This document shows, in pieces, positions 2,331-15,608 of a stretch of DNA of 42,643 nt (within the stretch, counting starts at the first letter, position 1; each line of letters begins with the position of its first letter). This DNA is from a virus. The stretch lies in UHGV virus genome UHGV-1882081; one strand, 5' to 3'. The position numbers and the translations under genes were made by a program. The notes below the pieces were generated by a model. That model had not been told where the DNA came from. It saw nothing but the letters and a program-made list of their open reading frames with translations, and searched no databases.

Positions 2331-4322
2331 CTATTCCTCAATACCTAACCTGCTTGAAACCTCCGGCATAACAGTAACCTGAAGGGTTTTTGATGAATCT
2401 GTGTTTTTAATTGCTATGCTTATATTGTCAGAAGTGCTGTTATTGTTTGACACTGTTATAGAGTTTGCATCCACCCCGAGTTTCGAATAAGCATCAGCAA
2501 AACTAAGACCAACACTTCCACCAACAACTCTATATGAACCATCAATTCTGAATGACGATATATTGTTATTGCTAACATCTCTAATTAGAACCCATATAGA
2601 AACACCCCTGAAAACAAGGCTTGCCCCTGATGGTATTTGAAGTGATACAGTTCCTGTGGAACCCGGGGGGATACTGCCAGTATATTTAGTTCCGTGCAGA
2701 TATTTCCCCGGTAGATCTAAATACGATGTATCTGGCTGCAATAAATTATGTATATGTCTGCTATCTATGCTTCCAGACAGAACCATAGAATCATTTCCAT
2801 ATTCAATTATCCTTCCACCATCGTTACTTATTGTAAGTAATCCTTTGTTTCCTTTATTGTTTCTAACAGTTATATCAGAAGAATCCAGGCGGACAATTGA
2901 TATATTTTTTTCTGTTCCATGACAATAATTTGATGAAATTTCACCTGTAACAAGTGACGTACATAAAATGTCTGAACTTCCATCACTGTCGCCAGTAATA
3001 GTGTTACAGGAAATTAATGCACCATATACCAGACCTGTCGGAGATTCTCCAAATTGCTCTATAGTAATCCGTTTTGTGGTATTTGCTGATATGGTTATAT
3101 TATGAACATCGTCAGTTTGCGATGTTACTTTGATCCTTGATGAAACGGTATTTCCAGAAATAGTAACATTACTTGTATCATCCACCCATAAATATGACGA
3201 AAACGTATTACATGATATGACTGAGTTACTCACCATTGAGTTCTCAAGCTCACATGAACCATAGCTATTGTTATGGTCATAATTTCCTATAATCCTTACA
3301 AATCCATTCTGGTTAATGAAGTTGTATGATGTTGCATTTTGTCCGCCATAAGTTGAGTTATGCGATGTTTCAGCATTTGTAACGCCTATATGTTGAAAAT
3401 GACCGGCATTTACAGAATCAGGAGCAACTGATGTACACCCTATTATTTTTGTATTTTTGACAGTTCTTGAATTAGGGTCATTCTCCAAATAATAGTTTTT
3501 TGCAACAAATGCCGTAGAGTAAAAGAAACCTTCAAATCTATTAAATAAAATCTGAATATCGTCATAATCTCTTTGGTCTTCATTTGCATAGCAATAAAAT
3601 GCTCTTGAAGACTCGGAGTAATCCTTGCATTTCTGAACACCAGATAAAAGTGATCGTATTCTGCTAGATTTTATTCTAAATCCGTTGTGAATTAACGTTG
3701 CATCACCAACCAATGTTATTGGCTTAAGCAATTCAACCTTATCAAAAACAAATTCACCACCATAAAATCCAAGTATAGCCCCTTCTGGTACTGCATTAAT
3801 AGCATTTTGAATTGCTACAGTATCATCTGTTATGCCGTCTCCTTTTGCACCAAAATCACTAACACTAATGTGCTCGGCATTTTTTTGATGCTGCGTCCTT
3901 CTTATTGACAAGGTGAATGGTTGTTTTACTGCTATTAATGCATCTCCAAGATCATCACCTGAACTTGCTAACTCCTGCCTTAACTGATCCGGGTCATACT
4001 TCAGCACATTTGGAAAATAGAACTGCTGCGCACCATACGCATCATAAACAGCCATAGAATGGCCTTGCACAGTTACGAACTTGGCAATCTGTCCGTTATA
4101 TACCGGATATCCAGCAGCGTTAATGATGATTGGCTGTTCAACAGGAACGTGAGAGGCGTCTTCGTTCTCCACATAAACCTGAATCTGGTTTTCAGGGTTT
4201 ACCGGGTCAGTGTCAATTTTACCGATATAAATTTTGCCATTGGCTACGGCTTTAAAAGAACGAGCCATAGTGAAGAGTTGCGAAGGCATCGATACGATCA
4301 CATTGGCTGTAATGTCTGTCAT
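2331..4322 (-). CDS. tailspike protein: P22/HK620-like N-terminal head-binding domain fused to a right-handed beta-helix polysaccharide depolymerase domain
   Basis: N-terminus [55 protein letters not shown]... matches P22 gp9/HK620 tailspike head-binding domain; downstream [19 protein letters not shown] is the pectate-lyase-3-type motif of depolymerases. The 3' two-thirds is markedly AT-rich. Confidence 0.9.
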
Positions 4323-4380
4323 TTAATTTGCTCCAGATACAAGGAATCGCCGAAGCATGGCTACGGTGAATTTTGGGCAT

Positions 4381-4404
4381 AAAAAAACCCAGCCGAAGCT
4401 GGGT
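4381..4404 (-). terminator. rho-independent terminator downstream of ant
   Basis: On the minus strand acccagc-ttcg-gctgggt hairpin followed by a 7-T run (plus strand aaaaaaacccagccgaagctgggt). Confidence 0.7.
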
Positions 4405-4422
4405 CGTTGCGTTGGTTATCTG

Positions 4423-5352
4423 TCAGTAGTTATGTACTGAAGGAGGTAATTCTTTATTCTTAAGTCTCATCCATGCGGAAAGATTCGTTGGTCCGTCTGG
4501 CTCATTGATATCAACATCTCGTGTGTGGTTTATTAAAACGTCTCTCGCCATTCCGATAACATACGAGAATTCATGACCGTAGTCGTAGCATCTGCCGGAA
4601 TAGTTCGATTGAATTTGTTTTAATGCCGGATACAGTTCGCGGAATAATGCCTGTGAGCGGTTGGCATAATCCCATAGCCATACAAGGCTGTTTGCTTCTT
4701 TTGCAGAAAGCTCGTTGGTTTTCTTCTCTTGTTTGCCAATGAACTCACCTTCAAGTGGAACTCGAGCTGCAAGTGACAGTGCTTCTGTAAACTGCTCCTC
4801 ACTGATTTCTTTGTACGAACATCCAAAATGGGATTTCAGTGACGACCACATGGTGATCATCGCCTTAGCCTGCTTTTCTTTTGGTAGAGACTGACCGCGA
4901 CTCATGACGAGTTGTTTAATGGCTTCCTGCTGTTCAGTGGTGATTTTACCCGGCAACGCCTTTTTAGCTTTGCGTTGGTTAACTACATCGCCTTTAGTCC
5001 AGTACTCGTAGAGCACATCGTCACACTCTTCCTGATACTGGATTACCTTGTCGCGGATTTCAGGGCGGACTTTGTTTGGACTGATGGTTTGCAGCCAGCC
5101 AGCAAGTTTGCGAAGTGCCAAACAAATAATCTCACGGCACTGTTCATCACCAGGAAGCTGCATTGTGATTTTCACAATGGAGGTTTTAAACCGTTGCTTT
5201 ATTTTCGTAAACTGTGAAGCCCAATCCATACCCATACCTTCAACGATAGGTTTCATTGGGGTGTACGGCTCACCGTTGTGATTGACGACATAAAGCTCTG
5301 CGCCGTGGAATGGCACGTTGATAGTAGATACTGCTGTTGCTATACTTTTCAT
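4423..5352 (-). CDS. ant: antirepressor Ant (P22 immI)
   Basis: 309-aa [47 protein letters not shown]...; N-terminal AntA/KilAC-type domain; position between arc and tailspike as in P22. Confidence 0.85.
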
Positions 5353-5418
5353 GTCAGTTTTTCCTCAAAATTTACTGGCGATTTAAGCCCGAGCTACTCG
5401 CAATAGCTTGGGCTTTAC

Positions 5419-5565
5419 TCATTCTGGACAAACAATTCCATCCTTAGCTACTGACTCCTTTAGTCTCCTCAATACCTCATTACTGAACGACCGATCATCC
5501 TTTTTCGCGGACTGCTCCAAAGCCTTTTCCAGCCATTCTGGCATCCTTAATGTCTTAACTTTCAT
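5419..5565 (-). CDS. arc: Arc-like ribbon-helix-helix repressor (48 aa); absent from the ORF track because under 60 aa
   Basis: Manual translation MKVKTLRMPEWLEKALEQSAKKDDRSFSNEVLRRLKESVAKDGIVCPE; AAGGAG RBS 5 nt upstream of ATG; Arc/MetJ-like pattern; immediately upstream of ant and divergent from mnt. Confidence 0.75.
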   Translation of the reverse strand: MKVKTLRMPEWLEKALEQSAKKDDRSFSNEVLRRLKESVAKDGIVCPE

Positions 5566-5669
5566 TTTTGCTCCTTTGTATGTGGTACGCATACATAGTA
5601 TTTAGGTACGCATTGATAGTCAATAGATACCTACATATCCTGTGGTAAATAATTATTCAGGATGCGCCG
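5566..5669. promoter_or_regulatory. immI divergent control region (Pant toward arc/ant, Pmnt toward mnt, Arc/Mnt operators)
   Basis: On the minus strand TTGACT-17 bp-TACTAT followed by inverted repeat tgtatg N7 cataca; motif ggtacgcat occurs twice. Confidence 0.55.
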
Positions 5670-5921
5670 ATGTCTGATCGTAAGTACAAAAACCCTCAAG
5701 TGAATCTGAGGCTTCCTGTAGAGATAAAGGAACGTCTTATTGAGCTGGCTGAGGCTAATTCTCGTTCATTAAATGCTGAGATGGTAGCAGCACTTGAGGC
5801 ATGGACTGAAAAAAATAAACATATTCAAGCACTAGATATTGCAACTATAGCATCGCGGTTGATAGAGCTTGAGCATGAGGTTGAGAAGTTAAAATGTATG
5901 CATGGCAACGGTGAAAAATGA
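5670..5921 (+). CDS. mnt: Mnt-like ribbon-helix-helix repressor (maintenance of lysogeny)
   Basis: 83-aa ORF, same length as P22 Mnt, N-terminal RHH pattern NLRLPVEIKERLIELAEANSRSLNAEMVAAL; divergent from arc-ant. Confidence 0.75.
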   Translation: MSDRKYKNPQVNLRLPVEIKERLIELAEANSRSLNAEMVAALEAWTEKNKHIQALDIATIASRLIELEHEVEKLKCMHGNGEK

Positions 5922-6745: not shown

Positions 6746-8860
6746 CTATTCATATTCATTCATACCGCTTAACGAGGCGACAATACCAGCTCTCGACAAG
6801 CGATTGAATTCATCGCTACCAATAGCATCGCGTATTGCTTTTACGGCGGCTTTATTTGCCATAAATCTGCGTTCCGCCGCCGCTAATGCTTCTTTACTTC
6901 CGCCAGCTCTTACTGCTTTCGTGGCTTCCTGAACTGCTTTCTCTATCGCATATCGACCGCTACGCGTGGTGGCAATTTTAGATACAGCACCTTTTAACCC
7001 GGCGCCAACTAAAGCACCTGCGGCAGCGCCTGCAATGCCCCCTCCTGCTCCACCAACAATGGCACCTGATGTTGAGTTGGCAATTGCATTTAACACTGTT
7101 GATGTGACGTTGGATAAACCGGCATCCAGATCGCGTAGTACATTGGCGGTTCTCCCTGTTCTTTCAATATACTGCTGAGGTTTCACTGCTGCTCTTGCAA
7201 GAGTGCCATATGCATCTGCAATTCTTCCAAGCTCTGAGGAATATCGGCTAATGGCTTTTACATTTTGTGGAGTGAGTATCTCTGCGATATGGTTAATTCC
7301 TGCTGCATCAGCTTTGCCACCACGTACACCATGCGAGATAGCATCTTGCAACATTGATGATATAGCAGGAACACGCTCTGATTCTGGCAGCGCGCGGATC
7401 ATAGAATGGAACCCAGCAGGACCATTAAGACCTTTAGCTGACGATGATTGAAGGGATTTTACTCCATTCGTAATCAGTGCATCTGTTGCCAAATCACGCC
7501 CGAAAACAGACTCTGCACTCTCTTGTGCTGATAACCTCGCTTTAGACAGATCATTAGCTTTCTGCCAGTCATCAAGAAATCCGCCGTTTTCCGCCATTGT
7601 GCGCATATCATCAGTAATTGCCCGGCGTATTTCCCCTGCTCTCCTTGCCGCATTTGCCTCTCCGCTACGCTTATATTTTTGCTCCGCATCAGCAAATTTC
7701 GCTCTCCATGCTTTCATGCCATCAAATGTTACTCCACCTTGATTGTTTGCCTGAACAAACTGTTTCATTTCAGGAGTAAGCGGTATGCCAGCAGATCGCT
7801 CTGCCTGAATAACGGCATTACCATTTAGCATTCTTGCTTTTTGATTTGGCATTGTTGACCGCACGTCATCCCATGCCGCGCGCTCGGCATCCTTCATCTG
7901 ATCAAGATTTTGAAGAATCCTTTGTTTTATAGCCGCACTTTTTTCTGATGCCGTTCCAGATGCGGCCCCAAATTCATCAAGGTTTCGACTTAACTTTGAT
8001 GATATTTCGTTAAATGCTGCCTGATGGGCATCCTGAACAATTCCTGGTGTTGATGCCAATGCGCCTTCGGCTTGTGCAATTCCACGACTTCCAGATCGCA
8101 TTCCTGGTGTTAATGCGTTTATATCAATTCCAGCAGACTCAGCCGCTTTTGCTACATCTTCGGACACATTAGCGGCCTGACTGGCAATTGACTGACGCCC
8201 TGCACCTGACTTTGCCATCCTGGAAACATCATTAGCAGAATTCAGTGCTGCACCACCAAGAGCCTGTGAAACCCTTGGCGCAATAACGCGCCCGGCACCT
8301 GAAAGAACGCCTTGAGCACCAATATTGATACCACCGTTAATGGCAGCATTTTGTGCAAAGTCGCCCTCCTGATTTGCAGCATCAGCAAGAGAACCTGCAA
8401 TCATGTTTCCTGCGGAACCGATATCTCCAGCGAGCTTTGCTGGCGCTCCAGCAGCTTTTGCCGCTGTGCCAATTGGCAGGAGATACCCACCAATTGTTTC
8501 ACCGGCTTGCGCGTAAGGGTCTGTCGGTCGATCGACAGGGCGATAAACATCATCCAAAACCTTTGGGCCACCAAGCCCCTGGCTGATAGCATTAATCAGA
8601 CTTGCGCCACCCTGCAATACGTCAAATGGTATGTTTACCAGACCACGACCAGCCTGTTCTGCAATTTGCCCGGCACTTTGACCACCAGTGAGCCAGTCAG
8701 TAGCTTTTCCTACCAGAGATTGTTCTTCTGGCTGCGATTGGTTTTGAGTGGATTGATCATCAGAAGACAGCATCTGAGCAATGCGACGTGCTCCCTCAGT
8801 ATCGCCGGCAGCATCAGCATTCCTTAACGCCGTCATCAACTGTTCACGACTATAGGCCAT
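6746..8860 (-). CDS. ejection (E) protein, P22 gp16-like
   Basis: 704-aa ORF, last gene of the virion operon, Gly/Ala-rich; order gp7-gp20-gp16 conserved. Confidence 0.75.
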
Positions 8861-14312: not shown

Positions 14313-15608
14313 TCACGCGGTCTGGTTAGGCAGACCAACACCAATTGCCTCTGGTCGTACAGCACATGCTGAATACCACACAGCAATACGGCACTTACCA
14401 GACAGAGTGTTGATATCACCCTGCGTTGCGAAGATGCCGTTAACACCAATGCCAGGAATGCTGAAGGAAGACGTTTTCATGCCAGCAAACAGTTCATGGG
14501 TTACCGGGATAGGCTGAGACAGCAGTCGGATTGAGTCATCAGCCCAGAACACGTTAGCGGTGGTTGTTGCCACGTTCAGAACGTTTACCGGAGTGGTATC
14601 AGCAAGAGAGGTGTTTACGTTAGCGTAAGCCTTCTCTTCTTTTGTCAGTGACGCGTCATCCAGCGCAATCGGCTTCGGCGTGATTTCGATGTGAGTACCA
14701 TCGATCACACGGGTGATTGAGAAAGTAGCATCATCAGTCAGCACGTTCTTCGCCATCTGAGACAGGAATTTCACACCAGTGAAGCTGATTTTGTCGCCGC
14801 GCTTAAACCCGGTGGTGGAGGATACGGTCACCGTTGCAACACGGTTGTCGACGTTCTCTTTGTTACCATCGGTATCAAGGGTGTATGCCTGCGGCTTAAA
14901 CTTCTGCGCACCAGAAACAGTTACACCAGTAGCGGTTGACTTGGTAACTGCCGGAAGTTTCGGTGAGCGAAGAATTTCATCAAAGCCAGCAATCTGACGC
15001 TGAATAGTACCGTTGCGATACGTGTCTTCAGGAACGCGACCAAAGATGTCACCATCTACCAGGTTGCGGCCTGCTTTGCGGTAATCGTCAGGGTTCAGGA
15101 AGTAACTGATGCCCATGTCGCGGTTGAGTTCGCGGGAGAACATCAGGCGCTCTGCATCAGACACAAAATCCCAGCCAGACAGGCCAGTAGATGGACCAAT
15201 TGCGCGGGTATCGTGAACAACAAGTGAGCCCATTTCAGTTGCCTGTTTGGCAATCGCTGACTCAATGTTATTCGCCAGTTTTTTGGCAGATGCCTGGATG
15301 CGGCGACGGTAAGAACGCTCATCACGCAGGTCATCTGCACGAAGCTCGAAGAAATCGTTATCCGGATCGCCCATGTTGCATTTCACGGAGAGTTCCAGAA
15401 TCCCGGTTGCGTTGCCAGTTAAATCCCAGCCAGTCTGGGTTGGCGCTTCCTGCTCAACAGGCATCCACACGGTGTTGCTTGAACGCTGCATGGATTCTGC
15501 CGGAGGGGTGTATTTTGTCACTTTGGACGCCATTGGCGTCAGGTTCTGGACGGTTTCGATGATTTCATCCAGAGCATACGTGACCAGTTGACCTTCATTT
15601 AATGCCAT
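14313..15608 (-). CDS. major capsid (coat) protein, P22 gp5-like
   Basis: 431-aa [57 protein letters not shown]... collinear with P22 coat (430 aa). Confidence 0.9.

Follow-up and report, generated by a model that had tools for sequence, protein, structure and literature searches.

A probable P22-type immunity-I module with a predicted sar-type antisense RNA and its own allele of control sites in an E. coli P22-like prophage

The short segment that separates the antirepressor gene ant from a divergently oriented mnt-like gene raises the question of whether this locus holds a complete immunity-I (immI) switch of the kind known from phage P22, and of which repressor would act on which of its control sites. 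The window analysed here is a stretch of 42,643 nucleotides from a viral genome (UHGV-1882081), in which a preliminary description had pointed to a small Arc-type gene, a hairpin and a candidate operator next to ant. Our analysis indicates that positions 4386-5921 (Table 1) very probably constitute a P22-type immI module of an E. coli P22-like prophage, operating much as in P22. By computation, this reading is based on gene homology and selection, on promoter consensus matches and their conservation, and on a covarying, strand-specific RNA structure of two hairpins; from homology with P22 we infer that this RNA is made, where precisely it starts and stops, that Arc and Mnt act as repressors, and in what sequence the steps occur.

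Table 1. Features of the immI region and its flanking genes, in window coordinates.
Feature	Position	Strand	Basis or detail
Tailspike gene	2331-4322	-	
Intrinsic terminator 3' of ant	4386-4405	-	Terminator scan; GACCCAGC-TTCG-GCTGGGTT, then T run
ant, antirepressor gene, 309 aa	4423-5352	-	Pfam, PHROG, identity to P22 Ant
Predicted sar promoter, inside ant codons 3-12	5318-5346	+	Promoter scan, P22 geometry, conservation; -35 TTGATA (5318-5323), 17-bp spacer, TG, -10 TATACT (5341-5346)
Predicted sar-type antisense RNA, ~67-69 nt	5353-5421	+	Rfam, fold, covariance models, covariation
sar stem-loop 1	5353-5358 with 5374-5379	+	Anti-Shine-Dalgarno UUUUUCCUC in loop
sar stem-loop 2 (terminator)	5385-5396 with 5404-5415	+	Tail UUUACUCA
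Arc-like ribbon-helix-helix repressor gene, 48 aa	5419-5565	-	Pfam, PHROG, homologues, codon bias
Shine-Dalgarno of arc	5571-5576	-	AAGGAG (complement of 5571-5576), 5 nt 5' of ATG
Inverted repeat, candidate operator	5577-5595	.	TGTATG-N7-CATACA; over predicted Pant start
Three 9-bp direct repeats, exactly 21 bp apart, candidate repressor sites	5584-5634	- (arc strand)	
Repeat R3	5584-5592	arc strand	ATGCGTACC; at Pant start
Repeat R2	5605-5613	arc strand	ATGCGTACC; in Pant spacer
Repeat R1, degenerate	5626-5634	arc strand	GTAGGTATC; in Pmnt spacer
Pant	5595-5623	-	Promoter scan; -35 TTGACT (5623-5618), 17-bp spacer, -10 TACTAT (5600-5595)
Predicted Pmnt	5613-5641	+	Promoter scan; -35 TTGATA (5613-5618), 17-bp spacer, -10 TATCCT (5636-5641)
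mnt-like ribbon-helix-helix repressor gene, 83 aa	5670-5921	+	Pfam, PHROG, identity to P22 Mnt
704-aa ORF	6746-8860	-	TW10573 homologue annotated 'P22-gp16 family phage DNA ejection protein'

Genes of the module

Gene order and orientation, with mnt divergent from arc-ant, agree with the annotated P22 record, and the gene content is that of an immI region: a divergent mnt, an ant gene followed by a terminator, and a site flanked by the DNA-ejection genes on one side and by the tailspike gene on the other. The ant product matches the Pfam domains P22_AR_N (1.8e-44) and P22_AR_C (5.3e-30) and PHROG 245 ('anti-repressor Ant'), and is 58% identical to P22 Ant; the terminator behind its gene occupies a position equivalent to that of the annotated P22 ant terminator. 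The Mnt-like protein, matched by Pfam Arc with 40.2 bits and by PHROG 795, a label also given to P22 mnt in RefSeq, shares 47% identity with P22 Mnt across the DNA-binding domain, and its gene is paired with an Arc-like gene in all arc-anchored loci in which the divergent gene was identified. Searches of NCBIfam with five proteins of the region returned nothing above the cut-offs.

The ORF between these two genes (translation MKVKTLRMPEWLEKALEQSAKKDDRSFSNEVLRRLKESVAKDGIVCPE) is a real 48-aa Arc-family gene. Its product scores 25.1 bits against Pfam Arc (PF03869; cut-off 20.4) over residues 6-45, matches PHROG 228 ('Arc-like repressor', 6.4e-7), and has 26 homologues, mostly of 48 aa, in which the N-terminus MKVKTLRMPEWLEK is invariant. 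Substitutions at codon positions 1, 2 and 3 number 159, 120 and 385, a third-position bias that points to strong purifying selection on the reading frame. Members of the family always have a Pant-like promoter ahead of them, an ant-type gene behind them and a Mnt-like gene in divergent orientation, and the GGAG of the ribosome-binding site is retained in most relatives. Both the strong ribosome-binding site and the Arc-type gene completing an mnt/arc/ant circuit, as put forward in the preliminary description, are thus borne out by the AAGGAG ahead of the 48-aa ATG, by the Pfam score, by the conserved place in the locus and by the codon bias. The same description took the ORF to be unannotated, which does not hold: for many E. 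coli genomes RefSeq records an ORF of identical length as 'Arc family DNA-binding protein' (WP_021528598.1), and the 48-aa ORF is likewise annotated in the record of Salmonella phage SEN22 (Arc-like repressor/Arc family). In TW10573, the closest genome (99.7% identical), a 41-aa truncated 'hypothetical protein' is annotated at the arc position.

Alignment with P22 Arc reveals L6, R7, P9, R25 and S26 to be shared. A single-chain AlphaFold2 model of the Arc-like protein, of low confidence (pLDDT 63), comprises an extended N-terminus followed by helices at 10-21 and 25-42, and a Foldseek search of this model against the PDB gave no match; since the protein would be an obligate intertwined dimer, a low single-chain pLDDT and an empty Foldseek result are to be expected and speak neither for nor against the assignment. 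A profile search against solved structures yielded weak Arc-type matches with E-values from 0.003 to 0.4 (pArc 0.003, Arc 0.38; also AmrZ). The mechanical ORF list contained a longer, 57-aa reading beginning at an ATG at 5590-5592, which we rejected: that ATG is contained in repeat R3 and no ribosome-binding site precedes it; it coincides with the predicted Pant start or lies upstream of it, and relatives either have it in another frame or carry a stop after it, as in ATGCATACCTAA of locus L008.

It is extremely improbable that the 48-aa ORF is a decaying relic or encodes a ribbon-helix-helix protein with a different function, for instance as an antitoxin or in the control of partition or conjugation. 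Weaker Pfam matches to TraY and FitA-like families, an NCBIfam match to TprA far under its cut-off and an identity to P22 Arc of only 28% could be read in that direction, but Arc is the best match in both Pfam and PHROG, no toxin or partition partner lies nearby, the ORF always follows Pant as the first gene and precedes one of ant type, and the selection on its codons is strongly purifying.

A predicted sar RNA in the arc-ant spacer

In P22, the arc-ant spacer encodes the small antisense RNA sar. The hairpin with a stem of about 12 bp that had been noticed in this spacer at 5384-5414 is present, one base away, at 5385-5415 (aagcccgagcta / ctcgcaa / tagcttgggctt), and our results extend it to what is predicted to be a complete sar-type antisense RNA gene, of which it forms the second stem-loop. 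The predicted RNA, with 5' and 3' ends placed by homology with P22, starts at G5353, abutting the ant ATG as in P22, and ends with its 3' hairpin at the arc stop codon; its location thus corresponds to that of P22 sar (5353-5421 on the plus strand here, 15021-15090 on the minus strand in P22), likewise in the arc-ant spacer with the 5' end beside the ant ATG and the 3' end at the arc stop. It would be fully complementary to the arc-ant spacer, ant ribosome-binding site included. The tail behind the second stem, UUUACUCA, is U-poor, and so is that of P22 sar.

Upstream of G5353, a predicted sigma-70 promoter within the ant coding sequence combines, as a sequence match, 10 of 12 promoter-scan matches with a TG. 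Its geometry is that of P22 Psar, annotated at 15097-15125 for a sar whose 5' end is at 15090: the -10 element is identical in the two phages (TGcTATACT), and six bases separate the hexamer from the start in both. The -10 TAnnnT is kept in 32 of 33 distinct relatives and shifted by 3 nt in the remaining one, and this conservation persists despite differing Ant N-termini. Neither this promoter nor the first sar stem-loop, nor the phased ATGCGTACC repeats described below, featured in the preliminary description.

The Rfam sar model (RF00262) aligns over its positions 1-68 with 5353-5419 of the plus strand, scoring 29.3 bits (E 0.0028 in a 2-kb search), 13.7 bits short of the curated cut-off of 43. 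At Rfam curated thresholds the whole window gives no match to any family, and standard annotation consequently misses this sar. The same model scores P22 at 97.8 bits, CUS-3 at 84.6 and SEN22 at 32.4, and the sub-cut-off score is a property of the current Rfam model, not a biological criterion. A covariance model built here (model R1) gives 79.9 bits for the window sar. A second one (model R2), made from 23 sequences that include P22 and CUS-3 and none from the clade of the window, finds 5353-5421 on the plus strand as its sole significant match in the window (47.2 bits, E 5e-8), which argues for homology with P22 sar through intermediates.

The 70-nt RNA 5353-5422 folds at -25.9 kcal/mol (z = -5.5), and none of 200 shuffles was equally stable. 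All 33 distinct arc-ant spacers examined (67-71 nt) share the two-hairpin fold, with 98% of cells paired and compensatory changes at 14 of 19 pairs; among 500 shuffles none did as well, and pairing with sliding partners amounted to 31-47%. These values come from an alignment fitted to the structure of the model, and hence biased towards that structure. A MAFFT alignment of the 33 spacers was discarded in favour of covariance-model alignments, as it misaligned stem-loop 1 and led RNAalifold to recover the terminator only.

Could the hairpin at 5385-5415 be a structure of the mRNA or DNA only, such as an attenuator, a stabiliser or a recombination hotspot, with no antisense RNA involved? A palindromic hairpin is present on both strands, and covariation alone is blind to the strand used. 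Each sar variant, however, contains 2-8 G.U pairs that weaken the mRNA-strand fold, the antisense fold being the stabler in 33 of 33 variants (mean -29.3 versus -18.2 kcal/mol), and in the mRNA the stem leads into AAATCGCC, which contains no U run. Moreover, a second covarying hairpin starts exactly at the predicted RNA start, its spacing from a conserved extended -10 promoter is as expected, and the element is homologous to the experimentally characterised sar of P22. We therefore regard a structure-only origin as highly improbable and favour the sar-type antisense RNA, which had been raised as a possibility and which the full-length Rfam match at the P22-equivalent position, the promoter geometry, the covariation, the strand-specific fold and the model R2 E-value all point to.

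Promoters and candidate operators

Pant, proposed from the outset as TTGACT-17-TACTAT, was recovered by the promoter scan with 9 of 12 matches and a predicted start near 5588, and is nearly invariant among 44 distinct related intergenic regions. At the Pmnt position relatives carry TTGATA-17-TACTAT, TAnnnT being conserved, and 28 nt separate the Pmnt -10 from the mnt ATG, compared with 27 nt in P22. Pant and Pmnt have their -35 hexamers back to back inside a palindrome, ATTGA-N3-TCAAT, whereas in P22 the Pant -35 overlaps the Pmnt -10. The intergenic region measures 104 bp in the window versus 90 bp in P22, and the arc leader of the window is about 10 nt shorter.

Two kinds of candidate repressor site accompany these promoters. 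The inverted repeat at the Pant start is real, and its arms TGTAT and ATACA are kept in most of the 44 related intergenic regions; its earlier attribution to Arc was a guess. The position just downstream of the Pant -10 is that of the Mnt operator in P22, where the Arc operator lies between -35 and -10. A plus-strand terminator-like prediction at the same coordinates reflects this operator-like palindrome and was not retained as a terminator. The direct repeats are the other kind: the exact 9-mer occurs twice in the 42.6-kb window, both times in the control region, repeats R2 and R3 are conserved across relatives, and R1 reads ATGCGTACC in several of them. The P22 cis-layout, with the Arc operator ATGATAGAAGCACTCTACTAT in the Pant spacer and the Mnt operator GGTCCACGGTGGACC at the Pant start, is not found, and the P22-like Arc operator TAGA-N5-TCTA is absent from the control region and at chance level across the window. 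The control sites are thus a different allele, while the parts are the same as in immI; as the control region contains none of the P22 operator sequences, it is by analogy that Arc and Mnt are proposed here to repress.

How the two repressors divide these sites can be read in more than one way. If the positions of P22 were followed, which we consider possible at less than even confidence, the Arc-like protein would bind in the Pant spacer (R2, possibly also R1) and repress both promoters, and a Mnt-like tetramer would bind the inverted repeat together with R3 (5577-5595) and repress Pant only. This arrangement would match P22, which has its Arc operator between the two Pant hexamers and its Mnt operator immediately 3' of the -10, and conservation among the 44 relatives is unusually high in both the 17-bp Pant spacer and the start region. 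It sits less well with R2 and R3 being identical 9-mers, which would fit one protein on both, and with a locus that has mnt and lacks arc and Pant (L133): there, TTTAGGTACG (R2) is kept two bases upstream of the Pmnt -35, in contrast to a decayed R1 and a decayed Pant -35, tying R2 to Mnt, albeit in a single lineage. An equally tentative alternative reverses the roles, with the Arc-like protein on the TGTATG-N7-CATACA arms at the Pant start and the Mnt-like protein on the phased ATGCGTACC repeats, where a tetramer might, for instance, span R2 and R3, which lie two helical turns apart. The identical repeats 21 bp apart and the retention of R2 beside Pmnt in the Mnt-only locus agree with this, as does the near-invariance of the Mnt-like DNA-binding domain and the repeats alongside an Arc N-terminus that varies among loci of the same core (MKVKTLRMP, PSSVRFP, PSTVRFP); the predicted Pmnt start lies about 39 bp downstream of the R2 centre, and a protein bound at R2 could conceivably help Pmnt. 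Against it, the centres of the two palindrome arms are separated by 14 bp, an unusual spacing for a pair of cooperating ribbon-helix-helix dimers, the L134-L139 group lacks the right arm although its Arc strand residues are kept, and the positions of P22 would be reversed. The Mnt-only locus is suggestive, not decisive, for the assignment. Natural chimeras joining this Mnt to another kind of Arc were sought, and the other Arc N-termini found all had a T/S-x-R strand.

An operator logic departing further from P22 is also conceivable, although we consider it unlikely. A single repressor, most plausibly the Mnt-like one, would occupy the 9-bp ATGCGTACC sites two helical turns apart across the back-to-back promoters, shutting Pant from its spacer and start and possibly activating Pmnt, its own promoter, directly from about 39 bp upstream, and the short-armed 48-aa Arc, with its T-x-R contact strand, would have acquired a new specificity, for the TGTAT/ATACA arms. 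In this last reading the Mnt-like protein has the Q-N-R of P22 Arc in its DNA-contact strand, and its C-terminal oligomerisation domains would be interchangeable.

Proposed operation and relationship to known modules

Under the P22-like operation that we consider very probable, the Mnt-like repressor made from Pmnt would shut off the strong promoter Pant in the lysogen; with Pant off, no antirepressor would be produced and the main prophage repressor would stay active. Upon infection or loss of Mnt, Pant would transcribe arc and then ant, and the accumulating dimer of the 48-aa Arc-like protein would in turn repress Pant. In parallel, an antisense RNA of about 68 nt would be made from the promoter inside the first ant codons, starting beside the ant ATG and ending at the hairpin that overlaps the arc stop codon; with an anti-Shine-Dalgarno in loop 1, it would pair with the ant ribosome-binding site and block translation of Ant.

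The module shares its gene order, orientation and post-ant terminator with the immI region of Salmonella phage P22 (mnt, Pmnt/Pant, arc, sar, ant), and the Arc fold family is common to both. Beyond the control sites, the differences lie in the Arc-like protein, whose N-terminal arm is shorter (2 residues before the strand versus 8), in the strand residues of the Mnt-like protein, which are Q-N-R as in P22 Arc and not H-N-R, and in sar, which has diverged: it retains the full-model match, the two-hairpin architecture and the genomic place of RF00262, whereas both stems differ in sequence and are maintained via compensatory changes. The same control-region variant is found in SEN22 (NC_028696.2; 84.6% identity over 96% of the query) and in E. 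coli prophages such as UMNF18 and TW10573 (95-99.7% identity), and in none of the SEN22 and E. coli prophage records examined is the antisense RNA annotated. Enterobacteria phage CUS-3 has the same mnt and Pant/Pmnt core (91% identity from window position 5537 onwards; 92% for ant DNA) together with a sar of the P22 type. A comparison of these regions published in 2008 described arc as apparently missing in CUS-3 (PMC2629481). We find in that phage an Arc-like ORF of the same family (58% identity), unannotated in the GenBank record and followed by an extra 67-aa CxxC ORF, which corrects the published impression of arc-less CUS-3-type regions.

The module is therefore ordinary in kind and modestly new in detail, and leaves the general picture of such switches unchanged. 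It indicates that the P22 antirepressor switch, together with its antisense RNA, is intact in a widespread group of prophages of E. coli and other enterobacteria, in which no RNA gene and no more than two small 'Arc family' genes are annotated. The Rfam sar model misses the clade of the window, and the 30-odd covarying sequences gathered here could widen RF00262. In their conserved, non-P22 layout, the promoters and repeats provide a second natural case in which to study how ribbon-helix-helix repressors partition two overlapping promoters.

The module and its Arc-like gene

The window is an Escherichia coli prophage of P22-like (Lederbergvirus) type; the table collects the features considered here. 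Over the 591 bp around the Arc-like ORF, Salmonella phage SEN22 is 84.6% identical and complete E. coli genomes, dozens of them, are 95-99.7% identical; phage CUS-3 matches part of the stretch.

Features of the immunity module and its surroundings, in window positions
Feature	Position	Strand	Remark
Tailspike gene	2331-4322	minus	
Weak STnc370 match	4345-4415		
ant-type gene, 309 aa	4423-5352	minus	both Pfam antirepressor domains
Rfam sar model match	5353-5419	plus	
Leave-clade-out sar model match	5353-5421	plus	
Arc-like ORF, 48 aa	5419-5565	minus	
TGTATG-N7-CATACA	5577-5595		
Repeat R3	5584-5592	arc strand	at Pant start
Repeat R2	5605-5613	arc strand	in Pant spacer
Pmnt candidate, TTGATA	5613-5618		
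Repeat R1	5626-5634	arc strand	in Pmnt spacer; degenerate in window, intact in several relatives
Pmnt candidate, TATCCT	5636-5641		
ATCCTG-N15-CAGGAT	5637-5663		between predicted Pmnt -10 and mnt Shine-Dalgarno
Mnt-like Arc-family gene, 83 aa	5670-5921	plus	divergent from Arc-like ORF
Small ORF after mnt, 104 aa	5918-6232	plus	PHROG 19844
Small ORF after mnt, 161 aa	6258-6743	plus	PHROG 6067
Large gene	from 6746	minus	P22-gp16 family DNA ejection protein in closest genome's annotation

The Arc-like ORF translates to MKVKTLRMPEWLEKALEQSAKKDDRSFSNEVLRRLKESVAKDGIVCPE, passes the Pfam Arc cut-off (25.1 bits vs 20.4), matches the PHROG 'Arc-like repressor' family and has AAGGAG 5 nt before its ATG. 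A database search returned 26 relatives of the protein, down to 60% identity and mostly of 48 aa, and residues 1-14 are invariant among 19 aligned relatives. Identity to P22 Arc is 28%, with the strand L-R-x-P and the inter-helix R-S turn aligned; a Foldseek search with a single-chain model (pLDDT 63) gave no match. Differences from 15 related loci fall on codon positions 1/2/3 as 159/120/385, a bias that indicates a translated gene under purifying selection. Judged by its sequence, the protein belongs to the Arc family, and Pfam score, ribosome-binding site, relatives and third-position bias together bear out the ribbon-helix-helix ORF proposed in the preliminary description. A mechanical ORF list gives a 57-aa reading. 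Its ATG forms part of a conserved DNA repeat and lies either on the predicted mRNA start or upstream of it; in relatives that ATG is out of frame or is followed by a stop, and the 48-aa start is therefore taken as the real one.

That description had also called the ORF unannotated, which holds for its CUS-3 homologue but not more generally, since many genomes in RefSeq carry it as 'Arc family DNA-binding protein', and SEN22 as 'Arc-like repressor'. In the closest genome, E. coli TW10573 (L004 1580-1705), RefSeq starts arc at an internal Met to give a 41-aa 'hypothetical protein', and near-identical DNA elsewhere is annotated as the 48-aa 'Arc family DNA-binding protein', so that automatic annotation of arc is inconsistent.

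A predicted sar-type RNA between arc and ant

At Rfam curated thresholds, nothing was reported in the whole window. Under its cut-off of 43 bits, the model of sar, the small antisense RNA against ant in P22, matches the arc-ant spacer over the full model length with 29.3 bits (P22, 97.8; CUS-3, 84.6; SEN22, 32.4). The match runs from the base adjoining the start codon of ant, an arrangement shared with P22 (15090 beside 15091), to the stop codon of arc. A promoter scan identified TTGATA-17-TATACT with a TG extension (10/12 matches) inside ant codons; its -10 hexamer lies six bases from G5353, and both hexamer and geometry are those of P22 Psar. Folding of the 70-nt RNA (-25.9 kcal/mol, z = -5.5) gives two hairpins: the first begins at nucleotide 1 and holds in its loop UUUUUCCUC, complementary to the Shine-Dalgarno sequence of ant, and the second is the hairpin already seen in the preliminary description. 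The ant terminator hairpin coincides with a weak match to the enterobacterial sRNA STnc370 (23.4 bits vs a cut-off of 54), most likely a terminator resemblance only.

For comparison, 69 loci with relatives of the Arc-like protein were fetched and 33 distinct arc-ant spacers, P22 included, were taken; every one measures 67-71 nt and adopts the same two-hairpin fold. In a covariance-model alignment (37 matches, 35 distinct) 98% of cells pair and compensatory changes occur in 14 of 19 pairs; none of 500 shuffles equalled it on any covariation measure, and sliding the helix partners brought pairing down to 31-47%. Since the alignment is itself fitted to the model, weight falls on the slid controls and on the folds computed independently for single sequences. 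The antisense strand is more stable than the mRNA strand in every spacer (mean -29.3 vs -18.2 kcal/mol), and each sequence contains 2-8 G.U pairs that become C.A mismatches on the opposite strand, which argues that structure is selected on the sar strand. The promoter -10 reads TAnnnT in 32/33 sequences, the exception being a 3-nt shift, and is preceded by TG in 26, despite several different N-terminal sequences of the downstream genes. A model built from 23 sequences, all outside the window's clade, gave a single significant match in the whole window (47.2 bits, E 5e-8).

Full-length Rfam match, P22-equivalent position, promoter, covariation and leave-clade-out match thus favor the sar-type RNA that had been suggested as possible, and we conclude that this predicted RNA is a diverged homologue of sar, whose transcription and function we infer. 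It shows every architectural and positional feature of sar and falls below the present Rfam score threshold.

Promoters, candidate operators and the Mnt-like protein

The promoters and candidate operators lie within 5566-5669. The predicted arc-ant promoter Pant (TTGACT-17-TACTAT, minus strand), as originally described, was confirmed by scanning and varies hardly at all among 44 related intergenic regions. The best candidate for Pmnt, the promoter of mnt, is TTGATA-17-TATCCT, the place of which reads TTGATA-17-TACTAT in relatives, at a distance to the mnt ATG that agrees with P22. Whereas the P22 Pant -35 overlaps the Pmnt -10, the two -35 hexamers lie here back to back, and thereby form the palindrome ATTGA-N3-TCAAT. 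Conserved positions outside the promoter hexamers correspond to three copies of ATGCGTACC (R1-R3), exactly 21 bp apart; the exact 9-mer occurs in the 42.6-kb window only at R2 and R3. R3 is enclosed by TGTATG-N7-CATACA, directly downstream of the Pant -10. This inverted repeat is present as first described, but its position is that of the Mnt operator in P22, not of the Arc operator it had been proposed to be.

Wherever a divergent gene was identified at an arc-anchored locus, it encodes an Mnt-like protein. Its 47-residue DNA-binding domain is almost invariant, and the contact residues Q, N and R of its strand PQVNLRLP (residues 9-16 in the window) are those of P22 Arc (PQFNLRWP), whereas P22 Mnt has H, N and R. 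Despite this strand, no P22 Arc-operator-like sequence was found near the window's Mnt-like gene. Several unrelated types of C-terminal part occur (total lengths 74-132 aa in L006-L074), and oligomerisation/effector domains appear to be freely swapped. The same DNA core is also found beside the Arc N-termini PSSVRFP, PSTVRFP and MKKVKTIRMP, with T/S-x-R kept in all. Contig L133 (1100-1200) has an Mnt-like gene without arc, ant or Pant, divergent from an unrelated 119-aa ORF; this one locus retains TTTAGGTACG (R2), which lies upstream of the Pmnt -35 by two bases, while R1 and the Pant -35 have decayed. Because the Mnt domain is almost invariant, Arc N-termini vary and R2 is kept in L133, we lean slightly towards the repeats as candidate Mnt sites.

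Many related loci carry, at the mnt-leader place of ATCCTG-N15-CAGGAT, an inverted repeat of unrelated sequence, pointing to conservation of a hairpin or a binding site. In viral contig L076 the match to the window is exact over mnt and into its leader as far as ...TTTACCA, with unrelated DNA beyond; neither the Pant/Pmnt core nor arc, sar or ant is present, leaving mnt without a recognisable promoter of the window type.

Relation to P22 and CUS-3

The annotated P22 record, used as template, has mnt on the minus strand, overlapping Pant and Pmnt carrying the Arc and Mnt operators, arc, sar in antisense (15021-15090), ant from 15091 with the sar promoter inside it (15097-15125), and the ant terminator. 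The window module equals P22 immI in its components and its presumed logic, but its cis-acting layout does not match. The two ORFs after mnt occupy the place of P22 orf59a and sieA. The 104-aa ORF overlaps the mnt stop codon (ATGA) and encodes a hydrophobic N-terminal segment, signal-peptide-like by eye; the 161-aa protein starts with MKKSLLIIPLLLAGC, a lipoprotein-type signal. Co-expression of both with mnt in the lysogen is probable, which makes them candidates for a role in superinfection exclusion or in lysogenic conversion.

CUS-3 and HS-1 were described in 2008 as apparently lacking arc (PMC2629481). CUS-3 (L001) contains an unannotated 46-aa Arc-like ORF (MKVKTLRMPEKLEK..., 3811-3951, minus), 58% identical to the window's; contrary to that description, its sequence indicates that CUS-3 does in fact have an ORF from this Arc-like family. 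Next comes a 67-aa ORF, likewise unannotated, that encodes two CxxC pairs (3611-3814, minus), and beyond it lie a P22-type sar and then ant. The literature treats 'ant morons' as highly variable. To a specialist the module as a whole is unsurprising and its variant operator layout mildly interesting; it can serve annotation and help to extend the sar family.
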